From an uncultured Bacilli bacterium (GTDB lineage Bacteria > Bacillota_I > Bacilli_A > RF39 > UBA660), in the NCBI GenBank assembly GCA_947594595.1, contig CANQEE010000003.1, positions 1 through 42,124 of the forward strand: a DNA stretch of 42,124 nt, read 5' to 3'. The notes under the pieces are model-generated. The model did no database searches. It had not been told where the DNA came from and saw nothing but the letters and a program-made list of their open reading frames with translations. This document shows positions 111-42,124 of the stretch, in pieces. The first letter of the stretch is position 1. The number at the start of each line of letters is the position of its first letter. The position numbers were made by a program, and so were the translations under genes.

Positions 111-987
111 ATCCTTTATATTCTCCACCATTGATGTGGAAAACTTGTCCTGTTGTATAAGAAGCATCATCACTTGCTAAATAAACAAAAATTGGAGCAA
201 TTTCATAAGGTTGACCTGCACGTTTCATAGGACAATCTGCCGCCAGATAAGGAATTTTAGAAGCCTCCCAACAAGCAGGTTGTAAGGGGGTCCAAAAAAA
301 GCCTGGAGAAACAGCATTTACACGAATATTTTGAGATGCAAGATTGGTAGCAAGACTTCTTGTAAACCCTACAATAGCTCCTTTCGTCGTAACATAATCA
401 ATTAGTTCTGGTTCTCCTTTAAAAGTTGTAATAGAGGTTACGTTAATAATGGAAGCTCCACTTTTTAAATAAGGAAGTGCCGCTTTTGTTAAATAAAACA
501 TCCCATATACATTTACTTTCATTGTATAATCAAATTGTTGATCCGTAATTTCTGTTAAATTTTTCTTTTGATATTGTACACCAGCATTGTTTACTAAAAT
601 ATCAAGTTTTCCATAGGTCTGAATTACTTCATCAATCAATTGTCTACAAGAACAAGGCCTTGTTATATCACTTTGAATGGCACAACAAATTCCACCTAAA
701 GATCGAATATAATGAACCGTATCCATTGCATCTTTTACCTCATTCAAATAGGAAATGACAACTTTTGCACCTTCTTTAGCAAAAAAAACTGCAACAGCTC
801 TACCAATTCCAGAATCTCCTCCTGTAATCAGAGCTACTTTAGAAGAAAGTTTTCCACTTCCTTGATAATTGGGACGATCAAAAATAGGAAGTGGTGTCAT
901 TACATATTCAAAACCAGGTTGCCTATTTTGATGTTGAGGAGGAAATTCTAAAAAAAATTCTGTACATTTTTTTCCAATTTTTTGCAT
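109..987 (-). CDS. SDR family oxidoreductase (YhdF/YghA-like)
   Basis: TGGDSGIG, NNAG, YxxxK (YVTTK) and the N-terminal PPQHQ..QPG motif typical of this subfamily. Confidence 0.9.
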   Translation of the reverse strand: MQKIGKKCTEFFLEFPPQHQNRQPGFEYVMTPLPIFDRPNYQGSGKLSSKVALITGGDSGIGRAVAVFFAKEGAKVVISYLNEVKDAMDTVHYIRSLGGICCAIQSDITRPCSCRQLIDEVIQTYGKLDILVNNAGVQYQKKNLTEITDQQFDYTMKVNVYGMFYLTKAALPYLKSGASIINVTSITTFKGEPELIDYVTTKGAIVGFTRSLATNLASQNIRVNAVSPGFFWTPLQPACWEASKIPYLAADCPMKRAGQPYEIAPIFVYLASDDASYTTGQVFHINGGEYKG

Positions 988-1039
988 TATATCACCTAGT
1001 AAACTATATGGAAAAATAGAAAAAAAAAAAGTAGATTTT

Positions 1040-9125: not shown

Positions 9126-9803
9126 TTACTTTGCTTCAGCTGGAATTGTTATTGAACCAGAATTATTATAATTACTATAGTTAATTTCAACTACTTCGGA
9201 AATTCCCATTATTTCCATTTCAAAATTCATTTTTTCTATATAATTGGAAGAATTAACAAGAATACTTATATTGATATCATTGCTTACAATTTTACTTGTA
9301 TCAATACTAGAATCTGCTTGAGCCATTGCTGCGGCAAGTTTCTCGCTTGATATTGTACCAGTATATAATGTATTACTTCCTTGCATTTCTTCTTTAATAT
9401 CAAAAATATAATTATTCAAATTTAACCATGAATTCGTATTTGAATTTTTCACAGAAGTAGAGGTCCATTTACCATTGGAAGCATCACTACTATATGGAGA
9501 GTATACCTTTGTATACGCTTTACCATTGCCATAATCATAATATTCTTCTGTATTAACTCCATAAGTAGATGTTGAACAGTACCCTATTTTATTCTTACGA
9601 TCTTCTTTACAACTCATTGTTGTTGCCACATCCACAATTCCTGTTTTTGTAGTAATTTTTGCAGTATAACTAAAGTTATCTAAATGATTTGTCATTACGT
9701 CCTTTATCTTAGCTAACTGACTATCCTTATTTACTTCTTCTTTTGTAAAACTACATCCAGAAATTCCAATCAAAACTACCATTAAAATAAATAAACGTTT
9801 CAT
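9126..9803 (-). CDS. Lipoprotein, possibly DUF6612/LppX-LprAFG-like fold
   Basis: Signal peptide MKRLFILMVVLIGISG-C with lipobox. Beta-rich body ending YSNYN..ITIPAEAK. Confidence 0.75.
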   Translation of the reverse strand: MKRLFILMVVLIGISGCSFTKEEVNKDSQLAKIKDVMTNHLDNFSYTAKITTKTGIVDVATTMSCKEDRKNKIGYCSTSTYGVNTEEYYDYGNGKAYTKVYSPYSSDASNGKWTSTSVKNSNTNSWLNLNNYIFDIKEEMQGSNTLYTGTISSEKLAAAMAQADSSIDTSKIVSNDINISILVNSSNYIEKMNFEMEIMGISEVVEINYSNYNNSGSITIPAEAK

Positions 9804-9804
9804 A

Positions 9805-10422
9805 TTAAAACTTATGCCCACACATGAAACATTGCGTTGCTGTTTCATCTACTTGATTCCCACAGTTTGGACAGAATTTTGTATTTATTGCACTATTTTG
9901 AACTGGTTGTTGCATTTGTGGTTGTGTTGGTTGTTGGTAGTTTTGTTGTGGATTAACATTTTTGTTATTATATCCTTGATTCACATTCGCTTGTGTCTCA
10001 GTTGGTTTCTTATATAGAATTGCATGAGCAACTAAACATATAACACCTAACCATAATAAATAGAAACCAAGTCCATTTTTTAAGTATTCACTATTAAAAT
10101 CAGATTTTGTATTTAAGTAAATAACAAATCCCACTACTAATATTGTAGGTATAATAGATAATTTAGGACTAGCATTTTCAATTTTTCTACCTAAATTAGA
10201 ATTAAATACTCGAGGAATATCTTTTTGCAAAAAATCCCTAAATATAAACATTGTATTTAAAATTATTAACACAACAATTATCTTGCCTTCCCAGTATTTC
10301 CATAATGATATAGAATACGAGTATCCTAAAAATGAAACTTGAAAATATGGTGTTATTGTACCTACAAACAAACATGCAATTCCAATGATTGCCAATATTC
10401 TTTTATTTTTCAAAACATCCAT
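9805..10422 (-). CDS. 4-TM membrane protein with Q/P-rich linker and C-terminal zinc ribbon
   Basis: Four hydrophobic segments and CPNCG..CFMCG. Confidence 0.8.
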   Translation of the reverse strand: MDVLKNKRILAIIGIACLFVGTITPYFQVSFLGYSYSISLWKYWEGKIIVVLIILNTMFIFRDFLQKDIPRVFNSNLGRKIENASPKLSIIPTILVVGFVIYLNTKSDFNSEYLKNGLGFYLLWLGVICLVAHAILYKKPTETQANVNQGYNNKNVNPQQNYQQPTQPQMQQPVQNSAINTKFCPNCGNQVDETATQCFMCGHKF

Positions 10423-10427
10423 TTTTC

Positions 10428-12125
10428 TTACCTTTCCTTATTTGATTCATAAAATAATTTTCCATTATAGGCATAATATTGTTCATTATTATCTTTGGTA
10501 ATTAAGATGTAATGATCATAAAAGTTTGGTGAGCTTTCTAACTTTAATATTTCTGCTTTTTTACTTATATCATAAAGAATATATTTTGAATCAGTCGTTG
10601 ATAATTTTGCATAATATTTATTTTGTTTTTCAGTAATATCAATATCAGAATATTTGCAATCTAATACTTGTTTTCCATTCTTATCTAAAATTCCCTTTAA
10701 ATTATTTTTAGTAACTATATAATAGTTATTGTATAAAGAAAGATTATCAAAATCATCACTAATCTTTTTACCTGTGGTGTCAATTAGATAATACTTTTCT
10801 TTATCATCACTAACTTTAGCAAATCCATTTTTGTCAAAATTATCAGCTCTAGCAAATGATTTGCCAAAAGCATTTTCGCCTTTTGAATTATAAAACTCAT
10901 AAGTACCAGAAGATGTCCCACAAGATGAACTATAATAGGTTCCTAAAATATACAAGCCCTTTTCAACATAACCTGTTCCTTTTATATTTCTACACGAAAT
11001 ATTTTTAACAACTTTACCATCAATATAAAAATCAACCCCATTAAATGAACCTTCTTTGTTTTGAGCATAATGGTTATTATCTAGATAGAGTTTTTTTGAA
11101 ATATTTATTCCAACATTTAGGTTATTATCTAAAAGATATGCCTTATTATCTTTACTACATACTAGATTACTATTTTCATAATAAACTTGATCACATTTAT
11201 CATTTAAATCATATAATTTACCATCTTTTATAAATTTATAATAGGTGTTATCTTGACTTTGAAACCACCCAACACAAGAATTTAGAGTAATTATTTTTCC
11301 ATCGTCTTCAACATGATTGACACAGTAATGTTTATCATCAGTAAAAGATATTACTTCTTTTCCTGTTTTTTCATTGAATATAAAATTTTTGTTATTATAA
11401 AATACCGATATGTATCCATCTTCTTCATTTGTTTCCGGATCATCCTCAATATTTTCTAAAATAGGAAAACTTGTCATTACCTTACCCTGATAGTTTAATA
11501 CTTTATATGTTTTCGTAGATTTTTCTTCCAAGATTGAATAATATTCACCAATAAAAGTGTTTAGATCATTCTCTTCTAAATCATATAAAACTTTCCCTGT
11601 CCCATCAATAAGGAAGTCGTGATAATCTTCCCCTTGAGCTTTATACATACCTGCTTCGGTTGAAATATAAGAATACTTGCCAAAATCTACTGTCATTTTC
11701 CCATTAGAATCAATTATTCCATAAGCATCATCTTTTTCTACTAAAGATGTTCCATTTACAAAATTACTTGCTGAATTAAATATAAATTCTGTAAGTTGCT
11801 TTCCTTCATCATTAAATAAGGCATATTTACTATCTTCATTTTTAATAAAAAATGCAGTAGAATAAGTGATATCTTTTTCTAAATTTTTATTTTTATCTTT
11901 ATTAAAATAAAAGAAAGCAATTATACCAAAAATTATTATTATAACAATTACGATCCATATTACTTTTTTATTATTTTTTGTTTGATTACTTGAAGTATCA
12001 ATATAATTATTATTTATAGGTTGCTGTATAGGTTGATTTTGAGGTTGTGCATATGTGGGTTGACTTATTTGTTCGTTACTGGTGTTAATTTGTTGTGAAA
12101 GGTTATTATTAAATTCATTATTCAT
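10428..12125 (-). CDS. Membrane-anchored WG-repeat-like protein
   Basis: N/Q-rich N-terminus, one TM, repeated Y/G-IID..GK motifs (YGIIDSNGK, YYLIDTTGK, KGILDKNGK). Confidence 0.75.
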   Translation of the reverse strand: MNNEFNNNLSQQINTSNEQISQPTYAQPQNQPIQQPINNNYIDTSSNQTKNNKKVIWIVIVIIIIFGIIAFFYFNKDKNKNLEKDITYSTAFFIKNEDSKYALFNDEGKQLTEFIFNSASNFVNGTSLVEKDDAYGIIDSNGKMTVDFGKYSYISTEAGMYKAQGEDYHDFLIDGTGKVLYDLEENDLNTFIGEYYSILEEKSTKTYKVLNYQGKVMTSFPILENIEDDPETNEEDGYISVFYNNKNFIFNEKTGKEVISFTDDKHYCVNHVEDDGKIITLNSCVGWFQSQDNTYYKFIKDGKLYDLNDKCDQVYYENSNLVCSKDNKAYLLDNNLNVGINISKKLYLDNNHYAQNKEGSFNGVDFYIDGKVVKNISCRNIKGTGYVEKGLYILGTYYSSSCGTSSGTYEFYNSKGENAFGKSFARADNFDKNGFAKVSDDKEKYYLIDTTGKKISDDFDNLSLYNNYYIVTKNNLKGILDKNGKQVLDCKYSDIDITEKQNKYYAKLSTTDSKYILYDISKKAEILKLESSPNFYDHYILITKDNNEQYYAYNGKLFYESNKER

Positions 12126-12979
12126 TATTTAAACATATCCATTATGTTGTCTAGTCCACCTGCTACTGAACTCATAAACAATTTCATATATGCATAATAT
12201 CCTGCAACTGCTAATATACCAAAACATATTAAGTTAAAGTATATTTTTGCATCTTTCTCTAATTTCAATTCACTATTCATCAATTCATACAATATTATTA
12301 AAGTATAAACTGCACCAACAACCATAAATACTATACTTAAAGGACTCCATATCATACCACCTAATGGAGATAAAATCATTATTCCAAAAACAGCAGGTAT
12401 GACTGATGTTGCTGCAATAGATAACGATTTTATAAAACTTAATTGTTTTTTTGCAACTAAACCGCCTAAATAAAATACTAATGTTATAGCAAAAATTATA
12501 CAAACATAAATCAAAAAGTTCTTACCTATTAGTTCTAACCATTTGATATTTTGTAAATTATCCCATTGCCATGAGGATGTATGACCCTCTGTCCAACTAT
12601 AACTTGATACTCTCACAGTTGTTAAAATTGTTTTAACCATATTGATGATTGTCATCACTACACTAACAACCAAAGCCAATATAACTGATGTTTTAGGATT
12701 ATTTAACTTTGTTTCTTCTTCTTGAAAACATTTAAATGGCTTTAAAAGAATAGCAATTATATACATGAAATAATTTAATGATGCCGTACTAACAGGATTG
12801 TTAGGTTGTTGGGTAGTTTGATTTTGAGAACCCACAAAAGTAGATTGAGCAACTTGCTCATTCATAGGAGCATTGTTAACAACATGATTCATGGATTGTA
12901 ATTCTTGTAAATTCGTTCCACATTTTATGCAAAATGTTGATCCATTCATATTTTCTGCTCCACATTTTGGACAATTCAT
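12125..12979 (-). CDS. Zinc-ribbon plus YIP1-family membrane protein
   Basis: CPKCG..CIKCG at the N-terminus, then LLKPFKCF and 5 TM segments as in Yip1. Confidence 0.8.
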   Translation of the reverse strand: MNCPKCGAENMNGSTFCIKCGTNLQELQSMNHVVNNAPMNEQVAQSTFVGSQNQTTQQPNNPVSTASLNYFMYIIAILLKPFKCFQEEETKLNNPKTSVILALVVSVVMTIINMVKTILTTVRVSSYSWTEGHTSSWQWDNLQNIKWLELIGKNFLIYVCIIFAITLVFYLGGLVAKKQLSFIKSLSIAATSVIPAVFGIMILSPLGGMIWSPLSIVFMVVGAVYTLIILYELMNSELKLEKDAKIYFNLICFGILAVAGYYAYMKLFMSSVAGGLDNIMDMFK

Positions 12980-34875: not shown

Positions 34876-35409
34876 TTATCCAAAAAGATAAAAAAGAGAA
34901 AGGAGAAATAGCAGTACACAGCCAAAAAGGTTGGCTTTCTTTCCAAATGATTTTTGTAATTTTTTTCCAAATAAGAGTCCACAATATGTAAATAGAAAAC
35001 TACAAAATGTAAAAATGATTCCTGCAAAACAAACATTTTCTTTTGTCGCGCCAAATCCTAGACCGACAGAAAAACTATCTAAACTTACAGTAAAAGCAAA
35101 GAAAAGAACTTGAAAAATATTTTCAATAGGGCTTGCCTTTTCCTCTTCTTTTAAGGAAAAAAGCATCTCTAATGAAAGAAATAAAAAAATAATTCCCACT
35201 AAATAGTTAGGATGCATAAGATATTTTGAAATGTAATAAGATCCTATTAAACTTCCAAAAAAAGGCATAAAAAAATGAAAAAGACCAACACTACTACTTA
35301 AAATAAGTGCAAGTTTCTTATTTTTTAAAAATAGTCCATATAAAATAGAAAGAGAAAATGCATCCATCGATAAGCCAATTCCAACCAACAAATAACGAAC
35401 AAATTCCAT
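34876..35409 (-). CDS. mntP: Manganese efflux pump MntP family
   Basis: GLSMDAFS, FHFFMP..G, VSLDSFSVG, about 6 TMs. Confidence 0.88.
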   Translation of the reverse strand: MEFVRYLLVGIGLSMDAFSLSILYGLFLKNKKLALILSSSVGLFHFFMPFFGSLIGSYYISKYLMHPNYLVGIIFLFLSLEMLFSLKEEEKASPIENIFQVLFFAFTVSLDSFSVGLGFGATKENVCFAGIIFTFCSFLFTYCGLLFGKKLQKSFGKKANLFGCVLLFLLSLFYLFG

Positions 35410-35447: not shown

Positions 35448-36203
35448 CTAGAAGTGATTCTTTTGAAAGAAATGTAGAGCATCTTCATACCCTAATCTCA
35501 TATTTGCAAGAATCTTTTGATGATCAAAATCTAGTACACCTCCTAAATCTTTGGATGGAGTTAAATAGAGAATATTTGGGATATTTTGATATTTTTCATC
35601 TAAAACATCCCCTTTTTTCAATCCAATTGCAAAAATTTGATCTGCACCCATCTCTAGAGCAAAATCAATTGGTAAATTGTCAAAAAGGCCTCCATCCATA
35701 TAAGTTTGTCCTTCTATTTGAATCGTTGGAAAAGCAGGAAAAAGTGCAGAAGAGGCTAATAAAAATGAACAAATTTTATCTTCTTCTAATTGATTTACTT
35801 CTACTTTTACAGGATAAAGAGAAGGAAGAGAAGTTGTTACAATTCCAAAACGTATAGAACTCTTTCTTAATTTTTTCAAATCAATCAGTTCACAAGCTAA
35901 TTTTTTTAAAGGAGTGTTATCGAAACTTCCTTTAAAAAGGTAATGTCCAATATAAGGAATAATTGTCTTGCTTTTTTCTAAAAAATAAGCATCTGTTCCT
36001 TTCAAAATATCCTCAAGTTGAATCGTGGACCAAATATATTTTGCAAGAGCATATTCTCCTGTTGTAAAAAACAAGCCATTTAAAGCTCCTACAGAAGTTC
36101 CACAAACAATCTCATAGGAAATTCCTAACTCTCGAAGAGCTCTCCAAACACCAATTTGATAACTTCCTTTAGCTCCTCCCCCTGAAAGTACAATTGCTCT
36201 CAT
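35448..36203 (-). CDS. Patatin-like phospholipase
   Basis: GGGAKG, GTSVG, DGG. Confidence 0.92.
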   Translation of the reverse strand: MRAIVLSGGGAKGSYQIGVWRALRELGISYEIVCGTSVGALNGLFFTTGEYALAKYIWSTIQLEDILKGTDAYFLEKSKTIIPYIGHYLFKGSFDNTPLKKLACELIDLKKLRKSSIRFGIVTTSLPSLYPVKVEVNQLEEDKICSFLLASSALFPAFPTIQIEGQTYMDGGLFDNLPIDFALEMGADQIFAIGLKKGDVLDEKYQNIPNILYLTPSKDLGGVLDFDHQKILANMRLGYEDALHFFQKNHF

Positions 36204-36889: not shown

Positions 36890-38602
36890 TTATTTTTTAG
36901 AAACTACTTTTTCAATTTGATCTTTTTCTTTTTTAGTAAGGGCAAAGAGTTGAAAAATAAATGCATCTAATTCTTCTTTTGCTAACTCATCTTTTTCTAA
37001 AATTCGGTTGACCCAATGTAAAACTTTTTCATCCTCTTCTTTTGTCAAAAGAGGAAATGGAAGTTCCATTAAATTTCCCTTTAATATTTTTATCTCTCCA
37101 AATAATTTTATATATAAATATTGATATAACTTAGAATTGAGAAATCCCATGACAGTTTTAATGGACATGTTTGGAATGTTTGGAATTAAAATATTCGCAC
37201 TGTTCAAAAATAAACTTTTTGAAGAATCATATGCAAATACTAATTTATTAGATACAAACTTATAAACCAATTTTTCAGGTGCACGATAAATTGCTTCTTT
37301 CCCTACTTGTTGTAATTCAGAAGGATTAAAAATAAGATAGTTTTTTGCTGGTTTTAATTCATAAGCATCAATTTCTTTTCCTGTATAAATTTTTTCACTG
37401 TCATCTATTTTTCTAGGAAGTAATTTTTCATGATTATTCCCTGTAACAATACCAATTGACCATAAACTATCTTTCAAGGTTTCTTTGGCATTCTTTTTTA
37501 CTTTTTGTATAATTCCCCTATCAACTTCTTCTAATAAATTAAATACTCTATTTTCTGTTTCATAAAAGGAATCAACCGAAATTTTTTTCTTTTTTTTGTT
37601 TTCAATAACTTTTACAAAAGGGCCTTGCTCTTCTTTTTTAACTTCTATATCTACATAGGAAGTTGTAACGCCACTAAACAAGGTATCATAGATTGTAATT
37701 TGTTTTAAATTTCCATGTTCTAACATAAAGGTTCTTATATCTTTATGTGCTTTTACATTCATAACTGAATAAGGAAATAAAAAACGAATAATTCCTTTTT
37801 CTTTCAATTGTGAGTATGCTTGATAATAAAAGCAAGAAAAATATTCTTGAGAAGAAGAAATCTTCTTTTGATTTGGAATTGCTCCCCAAGGGGGATTGGT
37901 AATAATATAGTCAAACTTTAAGTCATGCCATGAACTTTTTTCATTCAAATAGTCAAAACACTCAATTTGTGGATAAAAGGAAATTTTTGGAAATTTTAAA
38001 ATTAAATTTGCTTTGGCAATCATAACTGCGATAGGATCATTATCAATTCCATAAATTTGTGTAGGAGAAACATTTTCAAGAGCAAGAAAGAACGCTCCAC
38101 TTCCACAACATGGATCTAAAAAGGTTTGTCCTTTAGAAAATTGTAAAGAATGAAGCATATGATGTGTAACCATTTCAGGTGTATAATAAGAACCTTTTTT
38201 GTTTTTAACTCCTTCTAGTAAGGAAGATTGATAAAATAATCCTAAAAGATCTATTTCATTTGGAAGTTCCATTTTTCTTACTTCTTCGATGAGAGAATAA
38301 GGGTATTCTTTTAGAAACCTTTGTACATTAGAATGAGAAAAAATTCCTTTTCTTTGAAAGAGAGAAACTGCAATAGAAAAAAGAACTTCCTCTTTTTTCC
38401 ATTTATATAATTCCATTTTTTTCATAAGATCTTCTAAAAATAAAATCGTAGAAGGATTTTTCATATATTCAATGGGTATAATTTTTTTTGTGGACTGCGT
38501 TTTATTCGCACGAGAAGAGAGTTTTCCTCGTTTTGAAACATTTAATCTTTCCCAATTCTTTTTGGTTGCATCAGAAATTTGTTGTTTTGGCATTTTCATC
38601 AT
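36890..38602 (-). CDS. N6-adenine DNA methyltransferase, gamma class with TaqI-like C-terminal specificity domain
   Basis: GSYYTP, LDPCCGSGAF, YGIDND, ITNPPW, GIVTG, LNS. Start is one of ATG 38602/38599/38593. Confidence 0.9.
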   Translation of the reverse strand: MMKMPKQQISDATKKNWERLNVSKRGKLSSRANKTQSTKKIIPIEYMKNPSTILFLEDLMKKMELYKWKKEEVLFSIAVSLFQRKGIFSHSNVQRFLKEYPYSLIEEVRKMELPNEIDLLGLFYQSSLLEGVKNKKGSYYTPEMVTHHMLHSLQFSKGQTFLDPCCGSGAFFLALENVSPTQIYGIDNDPIAVMIAKANLILKFPKISFYPQIECFDYLNEKSSWHDLKFDYIITNPPWGAIPNQKKISSSQEYFSCFYYQAYSQLKEKGIIRFLFPYSVMNVKAHKDIRTFMLEHGNLKQITIYDTLFSGVTTSYVDIEVKKEEQGPFVKVIENKKKKKISVDSFYETENRVFNLLEEVDRGIIQKVKKNAKETLKDSLWSIGIVTGNNHEKLLPRKIDDSEKIYTGKEIDAYELKPAKNYLIFNPSELQQVGKEAIYRAPEKLVYKFVSNKLVFAYDSSKSLFLNSANILIPNIPNMSIKTVMGFLNSKLYQYLYIKLFGEIKILKGNLMELPFPLLTKEEDEKVLHWVNRILEKDELAKEELDAFIFQLFALTKKEKDQIEKVVSKK

Positions 38603-38655
38603 CCCATCTATATCTTTTTTTATTTTAACACTTTTTATTCTAAAAGAAAAAGAAG

Positions 38656-39492
38656 TTATCCATTTCCTTTTCGATAGACAAAAAGCATACGATCCCTTCC
38701 CTGTAAATCTTTTAAACATTCTATTTCTACATCTTTTAAATAGATTTTTACAAGTTCAGTAAGTGAATCTTTTTGAGTTTCCCCAATTTCAAAAGCAAGT
38801 AAAAATTTTTCTTTTAAATAGGAATTTACATGCTGTAATATTTTACGATAACAAGAAAGTCCATCTTTTCCTCCATAAAGAGCAAGTGCAGGTTCATTTT
38901 TTTTAACTATTTCTTCGATCTCTTCATCTTCTCTAATATAAGGGGGATTCGAAATAATAATATCAAAGGGACTGGATTCTAAATTTTCTAAAAAATCACC
39001 TTGATGAAACAGTACTGGAATTTGTAATGTTTCACTATTTTTTTTAGCAACATTTAAAGCTTTCTCACTAATATCAAGAAGTTCTACTGTAGAAGAGGGT
39101 AACTTATCTTGTAAAGTAAGACCTATAACACCACTTCCGCAACCAAGATCTAAAATATGAAGAGGAAAATCCTTTTCCCATATTTGCTGGATATATTCTA
39201 GTGCCTTTTCAACCAACTCTTCTGTCTCAAAACGTGGTATAAGCACATTTTTATCCACATAAAATTGTCTATTAAAAAATTGTACATGCCCTATTGCATA
39301 TTGAATAGGAGTTCCTTCTTGAAGGGCTTGAATTTCCTTTTTATACTGTTCTAATAAATTTATTGGAACCTCTTCTTCTAAACATAAATAAAGTTCTAAG
39401 GGATTTTTTCCCAATAAATCACTCAATAATATTTTAGCAAAATCAGAATGAACTTTCTCTTTTCCATAACAAATTGCTTCTTCTATACGCAT
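38656..39492 (-). CDS. prmC: Release factor glutamine methyltransferase
   Basis: VLIPRFETEELV, LDLGCGSG, SNPPY, EP.LALYGG.DGL. Follows prfA. Confidence 0.96.
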   Translation of the reverse strand: MRIEEAICYGKEKVHSDFAKILLSDLLGKNPLELYLCLEEEVPINLLEQYKKEIQALQEGTPIQYAIGHVQFFNRQFYVDKNVLIPRFETEELVEKALEYIQQIWEKDFPLHILDLGCGSGVIGLTLQDKLPSSTVELLDISEKALNVAKKNSETLQIPVLFHQGDFLENLESSPFDIIISNPPYIREDEEIEEIVKKNEPALALYGGKDGLSCYRKILQHVNSYLKEKFLLAFEIGETQKDSLTELVKIYLKDVEIECLKDLQGRDRMLFVYRKGNG

Positions 39493-40635: not shown

Positions 40636-41760
40636 CTAAGATTGAGGAATTTGGAGAACTTCTCCAATTTGAAGAAGACTGCTGGTTAAATTGTTAATTT
40701 CTTGTATAGCTGCGACACTTACTCCAAAATCTCTTGCAATACTCCATAAGCTATCTCCACTTTTTACTGTATAGAAAAGAGGAGAAGGACTTTCTTGATT
40801 AGTTGGAATTTTTAGAATTTGACCAATTTGTAATAAATTATTTACTAAATTATTCGCTTGTTTTAATGTATCAACACTGATTCCAAACTTTCTTGCAATA
40901 CTCCACAAACTATCTCCACTTTGTACAGTATAAGTTGTTTCTGGAGAAACTTCTGGAGAAACAGATATTCTAGGAACTTTCAAGACTTGACCAATTTGAA
41001 GAACATCGCTATTTAAATTATTAAGACGGCGCAGTTCATTGACTGTTGTTTCAAATTGACGTGCGATGGTCCATAGACTGTCTCCTCTTTGGACAATATA
41101 TTCTTCAAGTTCTATCTCTGATTCTATTGTTCTTGGAATTCTTAGGACTTGACCAATTTGAAGAAGATCAGTGGATAAGTTATTTGCACTTCTTAATTCT
41201 TGAACGGATATCCCAAAATCTCTTGCGATACTCCATAGACTGTCTCCACTTTTTACAATATAGGTTTGTTCATTCATAGAAGGAGGGAGTACTTCTTCTT
41301 TTGGAATTTTTAAAACTTGGCCGATTCGAAGAGTATCTGATGATAAATTGTTTGCCTCCCTTAATTCTTGGACCGAAACATCAAATCTTTGGGCTATACT
41401 CCATAGACTATCTCCTTTTTGAACTGTATAAAAATCTTCATTGCTATCTTCTGGAGGACGATAAGTATATCCTCCATATGTAGTGACCTCTCTTACAACA
41501 GCTTCCACATATTTTAAAAGATCATTTTGAAGTTTTTCTTGATCATTTGGATTGTCAATAAAGCCATACTCTAAAAGAAGAGACTGTGCAGGATCTGTAT
41601 CCCGAATAATAAAATAATAATCTTGCATTGGATTTTCTGGTAGACGTCTCTGATAATATTTTCGAGTGATTTGTCCTTCGCTTCCAATTGCCTCTAAAAT
41701 ATTTCTAGCAAGTGTATCGTTATTTCTTAGTGCATAGACAACCTCAGCACCTTCACCACC
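40636..41760 (-). pseudogene. 3' part of an interrupted N-acetylmuramoyl-L-alanine amidase (Amidase_3) plus 5 LysM gene
   Basis: The frame stays open upstream of ATG 41628 as GGEGAEVVYALRNNDTLARNILEAIG..RKYYQRR, then hits TGA at 41770-41772. It keeps LLEYGFIDN but lacks the N-terminal zinc ligands. Five Y.V..GDSLW.IA..F LysM units follow. Confidence 0.85.
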
Positions 41761-42124
41761 TGGGGATAGTCAATGTGTAACTAACCTATTATTTTATTAT
41801 CTTTTAAAAATTTCTATATTATTATTTTTTATTTTTCATTAAATTTTCTATAACATATTCATGAAGTTTTGGCATTGTTACCAATAAATAATCATAACGT
41901 TCCAAGTACATAAAAATTTCAGAAGAATCACCTCTACTATAATAACCAGAACTAACTTTTTTGCTTTCTTCTATAGTACCTTTAAAAAACTTAACAAAAT
42001 TTGGATTACATTTATCAATTCTTTTTAAATATTCTTTAGCTTTTTTGTCATTTCCATTTTTATAGTATATAGCAAATAAAGGAAATAACATTTCTAAATC
42101 TTCTTCTGGATATTTTTTATATAA
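41761..42124. mobile_element. End of a putative inserted element interrupting the amidase gene
   Basis: Abrupt junction ...TTACACATTGACTATCCCCA|GGTGGTGAAGGT on the minus strand, followed by an unrelated gene. No recombinase in the window. Confidence 0.55.
41822..42124 (-). CDS. C-terminus of a helical (TPR-like) hypothetical protein running off the window
   Basis: The frame is open to the window edge: ..YKKYPEEDLEMLFPLFAIYYKNGNDKKAKEYLKRI.. Confidence 0.65.
   Translation of the reverse strand, partial: LYKKYPEEDLEMLFPLFAIYYKNGNDKKAKEYLKRIDKCNPNFVKFFKGTIEESKKVSSGYYSRGDSSEIFMYLERYDYLLVTMPKLHEYVIENLMKNKK

Follow-up and report, generated by a model that had tools for sequence, protein, structure and literature searches.

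Insertion of a large serine recombinase-type element within an amidase-LysM gene of an uncultured Bacilli bacterium, and its possible excision in the mother cell

The DNA analyzed here, a stretch of 42,124 nucleotides (nt) from an uncultured Bacilli bacterium that we call the window, is the entire contig C3 of bin G000 (70 contigs, 1.04 Mb, 30% G+C), and near its right end it carries the 3′ piece of a gene for a putative peptidoglycan amidase with five LysM repeats, broken off within the catalytic domain. We are nearly certain that an integrative element of the large serine recombinase (LSR) type has its right end at positions 41761-42124 and that 41744-41781 is its attR site. The element is Tn4451-like, with TnpV in some copies, and is inserted between HINAGG and GEGAE of a chromosomal Amidase_3-5xLysM gene. 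The fuller statement, that an LSR element lies at this attR and that its excision in the mother cell would rebuild the amidase gene, has in our judgment an even chance of being correct. The features concerned are the following.

40636..41760, minus strand: 3′ piece of the amidase-LysM gene, with the C-terminal half of Amidase_3 at about 41497-41754, then five LysM stretches and the stop codon (40636-40638).
41744..41781, minus strand: attR, comprising the gene-side half (41744-41760), the core (41753-41760, GGTGGTGA on the gene strand, common with attL) and the arm GTTACACATTGACTATCCCCA (41781..41761).
41761..42124, minus strand: right end of the element, cut by the contig end; amidase homology ends at 41760, and sequencing depth differs between the two sides in run X1.
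41822..42124, minus strand: last 100 codons of the element's terminal gene, encoding a TPR-containing protein of about 292 amino acids (aa), with homologues in loci of metagenome-assembled genomes (MAGs).

The minus-strand frame, which stays open for 377 codons between 41769 and its stop at 40636, contains five LysM stretches (Pfam, E 2.9e-98), and its Amidase_3 match covers only profile positions 85-168 of 174 (Pfam, 27.7 bits against a cut-off of 27). Alone, the piece specifies an incomplete Amidase_3 (PF01520) catalytic domain without the N-terminal GHGG metal-ligand motif; the rebuilt gene would qualify as an Amidase_3 N-acetylmuramoyl-L-alanine amidase. Full-length relatives of 470-549 aa possess the whole amidase domain and read ...ISNHINAGGGEGAEV... 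where the window reads LSPGGEGAEVVY, and homology to them begins at GGEGAE, near residue 91 and at window base 41760 (58% identity to residues 86-483 of protein P0003). There is neither a start codon nor a ribosome-binding site (RBS) at the break, the first in-frame ATG being at 41628; the open 3′ part starting at GGEGAE that the original prediction described is thus confirmed. On the same strand, the break is preceded by TTACACATTGACTATCCCCA (41780..41761) and then, going upstream, by a spacer of 40 nt and the final 100 codons of an unrelated gene truncated by the contig end, which lies 364 nt from the break. Comparison of the window piece with the split copies of genomes G002 and G003 gave dN/dS values of 0.05-0.09, and split pieces within the genus gave 0.05-0.12 with dS above 1.2. 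Both the 5′ and the 3′ pieces are open and constrained in every split copy examined, and the constraint on the pieces is strong.

The same right arm, TACACAwTGnCyATCnCCAGG, occurs at the same codon in genomes G014 and G003, in the MAG loci L019 and L029 and in the window, where GTTACACATTGACTATCCCCAGGTGGTGAAGG is the same attR as in the other four. An inverted copy of the arm, GGTGAT(A/G)GTCAwwGTGTAAC, is found at attL of G014, L019, L029 and G002, and the ends of the G014 element are inverted repeats (attL ...AATGCAGGTGGTGGTGATGGTCATTGTGTAAC, attR CTACACAATGCCCATCACCAGGTGGTGAAGG...). The att arms of the family are imperfect inverted repeats around a short common core, with no target-site duplication, and the arm in the window fits this family. 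It had been proposed that 41761-41790 is an att half-site; the interval 41761-41781 is indeed an att arm: G003, G014, L019 and L029 have it at the same codon, and wherever the other element end is assembled as well, the arm is its inverted repeat. Inspection of G014, L019 and L029 showed that the core GGTGG(T/C/A)GA is common to attL and attR and stands in the same codon phase in both, and therefore conservative recombination would rebuild ...HINAGGG(E/D)GAE... in frame, as it reads in unsplit homologues; this inspection uses the natural attL and attR of relatives, G000 itself offering attR only.

Complete elements, in relatives with both ends assembled, measure 4-19 kb and differ in cargo (Bro-N, UPF0158-like, TPR, TnpV and defence-type genes). 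In G014 the two gene pieces lie 12.7 kb apart on one contig and on the same strand, and the insert encodes a 524-aa LSR, a TnpV homologue (PF14198, 124 bits), a protein with nSTAND3 and Mrr domains, an OLD/TOPRIM ATPase and a Fic protein. The cargo, which looks defence-type, is placed as follows.

Locus L006 (G014:C6) 9238-12727, minus strand: G014 cargo, a 769-aa Mrr_cat + nSTAND3 protein adjoining a 393-aa AAA/OLD-TOPRIM protein, plus a Fic/DOC protein.

TnpV is also present in L029 and is absent from the smallest copies (L019). The LSRs of G014 (524 aa) and L019 (536 aa) match Resolvase, Recombinase and Zn_ribbon_recom, all three above the Pfam cut-off, these domain results coming from the elements of relatives and not from the window; the complete L029 element also carries an LSR. 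The minimal copy is the 4.2-kb L019 element, in which the order is 5′ piece, 30-codon open reading frame (ORF), LSR, Bro-N, UPF0158-like, the 292-aa TPR protein (the gene found in the window) and 3′ piece. The full-length L019 homologue of the terminal gene matches TPR_19, and the 100-aa part in the window had no Pfam match. Relatives of the terminal gene were found in 23 MAG loci, 21 of them matching over at least 94 residues at 66-90% identity and the remaining two being partial matches at contig ends; of the 23 loci, 11 have the 3′ amidase piece after the terminal-gene homologue, nine have an LSR homologue upstream of it, and two (L019 and L029) contain both amidase pieces. Relatives are therefore split at the same codon with differing cargo, and their complete elements carry an LSR, both as foreseen in the original prediction. 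In one scan of viral contigs, made with the terminal protein alone, no relative was detected.

Search of the G000 bin for the missing 5′ part uncovered a second, related LSR element, which also interrupts a CwlD-like gene. The pieces (those of the CwlD-like gene being loci L003 and L005) are as follows.

C1:49282-49332, within locus L004 (C1:49282-49395): start of the amidase-LysM gene, an RBS and 17 codons (MNERAIKGVVVDAGHGG), followed by 63 nt of foreign DNA and then the contig end.
G000:C60 about 812-1012, minus strand: 5′ piece of the CwlD-like gene, split right after GHGG.
G000:C55 1-1592: 3′ piece of the CwlD-like gene, with the final codons of an LSR-like ORF and a Bro-N gene ahead of it and a SpoIID-like gene beside it.

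The foreign 63 nt, with one mismatch, also follow the GHGG of the second amidase 5′ piece on C60. The C1 junction shares its left end with the cwlD element, and therefore the amidase-LysM gene of G000 is cut twice, into at least three pieces. The 3′ piece on C55 has CwlD TIGR02883 as its best match (170 bits for the fragment, cut-off 221.55). A complete cwlD element of about 6 kb is present in G002 (L044), and its LSR is 29% identical to the other type. The cwlD gene is split at GHGG in five of the six genomes of the genus (G000, G001, G002, G003 and G005), and G004 gave no cwlD match. Five database proteins (P0211, P0213, P0224, P0228 and P0236) are middle pieces reading xHGG...HINAGG followed by a tail, and therefore three-piece genes occur in other genomes as well. 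No contig-end overlaps link C1, C3, C55 or C60, and an attempt to use synteny to place the C1 end and the C3 end at one locus failed, the neighbours in G002 and G003 mapping to G000:C8.

The position of the break, 364 nt from the contig end, and the absence of residues 18-90 from the bin would be expected if the contig end were chimeric or if the gene were a pseudogene left by a deletion. We regard such an artefact or dead remnant as very improbable and largely refuted, since a separately built 425-nt contig of run X1 spans 41427-41851 with zero differences, homologous junctions recur in many other genomes, the 377-codon frame is intact at the low dN/dS given above, and the five database proteins, which come from other genomes, are exactly the expected middle piece. 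Run X1 is possibly the source sample, so the bridging contig checks the assembler and not the biology; together with the recurrence of the junction it leads us to discount the chimeric assembly at 41760 that had been named as an alternative. In X1 the depth was 50-211 on the element side and 7-19 on the gene side, and the 37 nt at 41744-41780 are found with differing flanks in at least five contigs of run X4, from another study. The element is therefore present in several genomic contexts of these communities, which is why the contig stops here. Two apparent skips (40773>41747 and 41634>41744) were rejected as repeats or other organisms, their sides being only 22-26 letters long. The complete copies in relatives are flanked by no direct repeat beyond the recombination core and carry no DDE transposase, their recombinase being of the serine type, so that a DDE transposon or insertion sequence, the plain insertional inactivation against which the original prediction had been set, was also rejected. 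A self-splicing intron or intein in place of a DNA element is hardly conceivable: a stop at the junction closes the frame, the inserts hold a serine recombinase and inverted-repeat arms, and an Rfam search of four junction loci (E up to 1) returned no intron family, its sole match being RalA at E 0.91. This possibility, rejected on these results, had in its favor the insertion within a conserved catalytic motif, which is frequent for homing elements.

The split is widespread. Among the 25 family genomes searched first, 13 had pieces bounded at residues of about 87-100, eight had a spanning copy and four had no amidase-domain match. In a broader set of 151 genomes, with roughly one genome for each genus, at least 53 had a piece that is bounded at the site and at least 69 had a spanning copy (lower bounds, counted by hand among the matches listed); among the 53, five have a spanning copy in addition, and four, whose piece starts no more than 8 nt from the start of a contig, are ambiguous. 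No match was listed for 21 other genomes, and 13 were unclassified. Where both pieces lie on the same contig (six pairs), the elements measure 10.0-19.4 kb. The 5′ piece has matches in 512 protein-database clusters of 55-175 aa; among the best 120 of these, 57 end in the tail specified by this arm, ...(C/S)VT(N/K), two read across the site, and the remainder show at least ten other tails at the same codon, and therefore this exact codon is the target of several kinds of element. Of the 120 best matches to the 3′ piece, seven start no further than 8 residues from GGEGAE. At locus L018 (5754-8644), a homologue of the TPR gene of the window (89% identical) and element-type genes lie just upstream of an unsplit amidase-LysM gene, on a 9.9-kb contig without a recombinase; they may represent a remnant or an element inserted at a different site.

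The original prediction appealed to spore-formers, and G000 has matches to Spo0A_C (139.8 bits), SpoIVA (369.4) and SpoIIGA (143.9), together with a sigK gene that scores 301.4 bits, above the curated cut-off, and is intact in one open frame.

C1:10419-10730, C46:5370-6077, C21:15005-16458 and C58:265-915: regions with the genes for Spo0A, SpoIVA, SpoIIGA (with a sigma-E-like gene) and sigK.

The second-best sigma match, the sigma-E-like gene, adjoins spoIIGA, and SpoIID-like and CwlD-like genes are also present; SpoVAC_SpoVAEB was not found in G000. By its gene content this uncultured host does look like a spore-former, and at 1.04 Mb it would be an unusually small endospore-former.

The sequence upstream of the amidase gene was compared among 24 orthologues, which included split and unsplit copies. 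CATAnnnTA is located 5-10 nt before the RBS in 21 of the 24 regions, and AC lies a further 16-17 nt upstream in 19; among 764 long ORFs of G000, the motif was found before 28 and the motif with AC before three (0.4-3.7%). The orthologues are related, so the counts overstate their independence, and the flanking sequence is otherwise diverged. The sigma-K consensus is quoted as mACm-N16-CATA-N3-TA in PMC5749712. The amidase gene thus appears to have a conserved sigma-K-type promoter, and expression in the mother cell is predicted from this promoter. When 22 motif-bearing genes of G000 were scanned, eight matched sporulation-named families (YtaF, YlxY, YqfC, SpoVIF, SleB and, three times, the LysM of SafA/SpoVID), and the motif-bearing genes are candidates for a mother-cell regulon and a set of coat proteins. 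CATAnnnTA precedes about 40 other genes of G000, many of which encode small unannotated proteins that are Gly/Pro/Asn-rich or collagen-like. In the window it stands a few bases before the RBS of genes for a YtaF-like membrane protein (34876-35409, minus strand) and a patatin-like phospholipase (35448-36203, minus strand).

An ORF of 30-32 codons lies upstream of the LSR gene in all nine elements examined; three of the nine were scanned in full, and in these no other element ORF is preceded by a CATAnAnT-type −10 and an RBS. Sigma-E-type −35 elements in front of the small ORF were judged by eye and set aside. The predicted complex of the LSR with the small ORF product scored 0.56, the best of three controls scoring 0.01; the runs agreed in at least 94% of contacts, and the partner pLDDT was at least 74. 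The mark applied to such predictions was reached by 116 of 157 solved complexes and by two of 215 mismatched pairs, and at scores of up to 0.60 by 18 of the 157 solved complexes and both mismatches. The prediction weakly suggests that the peptide may bind the LSR.

We propose that the LSR, with a directionality factor for which the small ORF is a candidate, would excise the element in the terminally differentiating mother cell, where the amidase gene would be restored and expressed, the element being retained in the spore. The rebuilt amidase, transcribed from the sigma-K-type promoter, would act as a late mother-cell wall hydrolase like CwlC, which has this role in B. subtilis. G000 would need a second excision, at GHGG, the 5′ part being cut after codon 17 by the second, related element, which splits cwlD as well. 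Such reconstitution in the manner of skin, SPbeta or gin is plausible but unproven; we consider it the most likely function, at roughly even chances, its main rival being a neutral integration hot spot. More tentatively, and with a probability clearly below even, a family of gut endospore-formers with genomes of about 1 Mb may carry cwlD and the gene of a CwlC-like lysin driven by sigma-K, both sporulation amidase genes, as separate pieces in the genome of the spore line. Serine recombinases would restore them in the mother cell by excising small, horizontally mobile elements with defence-type cargo; some lysin genes, that of G000 among them, would be in three pieces and require two different recombinases at two codons of catalytic motifs, and the directionality factor would be a peptide of 30-32 residues, encoded ahead of the recombinase and under a mother-cell promoter.

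Several observations weigh against excision in the mother cell. No excised, rejoined or circular form was present among the contigs of four public runs, which are stored as assembled contigs, and such contigs drop rare forms; none of them connects the 3′ piece with a 5′ piece or shows a recognisable circle junction, so the search for the rejoined gene and circle suggested with the original prediction was negative. The 5′ half and the recombinase had been expected beyond the window: the first 17 codons were indeed found on C1 (49282-49332), followed by the second element junction, but residues 18-90, the predicted left arm (GGGGATAGTCAA-type) and a serine recombinase (PF07508 and PF00239, 0 matches) were not detected in the G000 bin, which is 97% complete by markers. 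The search of the bin for the arm returned the window's own copy and two chance matches with three mismatches, compared with 2+2 control matches, and four tyrosine recombinases are encoded elsewhere in the bin. We infer that repeated mobile DNA frequently stays unbinned; it may also be that this strain can no longer repair the amidase gene. Gene neighbours at the locus differ within the genus, the G000 amidase adjoining prfA/prmC and the 3′ pieces of G002 (L016) and G003 (L014) adjoining an HU-like gene whose orthologous region in G000 is C8:28458-32264, and therefore the locus has been rearranged, possibly through the elements. All eight of the sporulation-family matches among the motif-bearing genes are under curated cut-offs, and three of the eight involve LysM. 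The extended −10 read by eye before the LSR gene is sigma-A-like, and the purifying selection on the pieces may stem from unoccupied phases, given that occupancy turns over. The small ORF product, whose predicted binding to the LSR is weakly supported, is shorter than GirX, a factor of 6.5 kDa according to PMC5595907.

Much of this would also be accounted for if the same element and attR had no developmental role, HINAGGGEGAE being a preferred attB and a dispensable amidase being lost until the element leaves; we consider this a substantial possibility, though well short of even. A neutral insertion hot spot would explain the prevalence, and G002 and G003 carry different arms on one side, which points to turnover of occupancy between congeners. 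The terminal gene is 79-90% identical between hosts (dS 0.4-0.8 in eight of ten pairs) whose amidase pieces are only 33-68% identical (dS at least 1.2), and therefore the element moves horizontally. The defence-type cargo of G014 (nSTAND3+Mrr, OLD/TOPRIM ATPase and Fic), the ten or more left-end tails at one codon, the unsplit copies in at least 69 of 151 genera, the lack of a rejoined form in the contigs of the four runs and the missing middle piece of G000 are likewise in keeping with a neutral hot spot. It is less easily reconciled with the nature of the two target amidases, both of sporulation type (cwlD and a gene with a sigma-K-type promoter), or with the openness and constraint of both pieces in all split copies examined, and the split of cwlD in five of six genomes is hard to reconcile with the loss of a cortex-maturation enzyme in a spore-former. 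An improbable alternative is a reversible switch in vegetative cells, in the style of active lysogeny, in which stochastic or stress-induced excision and reintegration would toggle the amidase in a subpopulation, independently of sporulation. LSRs of the TnpX type can excise and insert without a separate factor, TnpV is present in G014 and L029, and the −10 before the LSR gene is sigma-A-like; against such a switch, the sigma-K-type promoter implies that the amidase gene is not read in growing cells, and intact and split forms of one strain were not seen together among the contigs of the four runs.

An ORF of 609 aa in the window (36890-38719, minus strand), DNA methyltransferase-like with an NPPW-type motif, overlaps the end of prmC.

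Programmed rebuilding of sporulation genes is known from a few cultured Bacillus and Clostridium cases (sigK, spsM, spoVFB, spoVR, gerE and kamA), and the same architecture is now seen in an uncultured, genome-reduced gut lineage, in at least 53 of 151 genera and in hundreds of public protein clusters. What is new is the pair of peptidoglycan amidase targets, both cut inside metal-ligand motifs, and, beyond the targets, the lineage with its very small genomes, the frequency of the split, the occupation of a single codon by many types of element and the three-piece genes. If excision is developmental, these elements would be a large natural set of LSR, att and directionality-factor units of interest for genome engineering, and mother-cell genes would regularly serve as shelter for mobile elements, minimal spore-formers included; otherwise the site still represents a sharply delimited hot spot for integration and accounts for many truncated LysM annotations and MAG contig breaks.

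Our literature search found no description of these amidase targets and no paper containing both "cwlD" and "serine recombinase"; supplements or older subscription papers may hold one. The elements resemble Tn4451/Tn4453, which have a TnpX LSR, TnpV, inverted-repeat ends and no target duplication, in their LSR, their TnpV homologue, their inverted-repeat ends, the absence of target duplication and a size of a few kb to about 13 kb. They differ from Tn4451/Tn4453 in their strict target, one codon of a conserved gene, and in the lack of TnpV from the smallest copies (L019); no resistance or Mob gene was seen, none having been looked for. For both LSR types the best NCBIfam match is recomb_XisF (93 and 106 bits, much less than the cut-off of 375). 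XisF, which acts on the fdxN element in cyanobacterial heterocysts, is likewise a serine recombinase and restores a gene in cells that have terminally differentiated; the similarity to it is generic to the family, and phylum and target differ.

Precedents among sporulation genes are skin in sigK, SPbeta in spsM, vfbin in spoVFB, vrin in spoVR, gin in gerE and phi3T in kamA (PMC4191935, PMC5595907, PMC6957869), and nearly all such intervening elements reside in mother-cell genes, as stated in one of these papers. "Amidase" and "cwl" occur 0 times in PMC4191935 and PMC5595907. According to PMC4191935 and PMC6957869, an LSR excises skin (SpoIVCA) and SPbeta (SprA/SprB) of Bacillus subtilis and phi3T in the mother cell, and the spore genome retains them; the directionality factor is under a mother-cell promoter. 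These elements are prophages or prophage remnants of tens of kb, whereas the terminal gene of the present element had no match in viral contigs; and unlike the skin target, sigK itself is intact in G000. The architecture seems to fit that of sporulation gene-intervening elements, and most closely that of the non-phage gin element in gerE of Bacillus cereus, which encodes the LSR GirC and the 6.5-kDa directionality factor GirX (PMC5595907). The present element differs from gin in its target, a peptidoglycan amidase and not a regulator, in its host, an uncultured gut Bacilli lineage with a genome of about 1 Mb, in a candidate factor of only 30-32 aa, in the several unrelated left ends at the same codon and in its excision, which, like its timing, is a prediction here. 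Like gin, it is a compact non-phage LSR element within a coding region, and PMC5595907 describes the gin target as a late mother-cell gene, rebuilt by precise site-specific excision with the aid of a small element-encoded factor.

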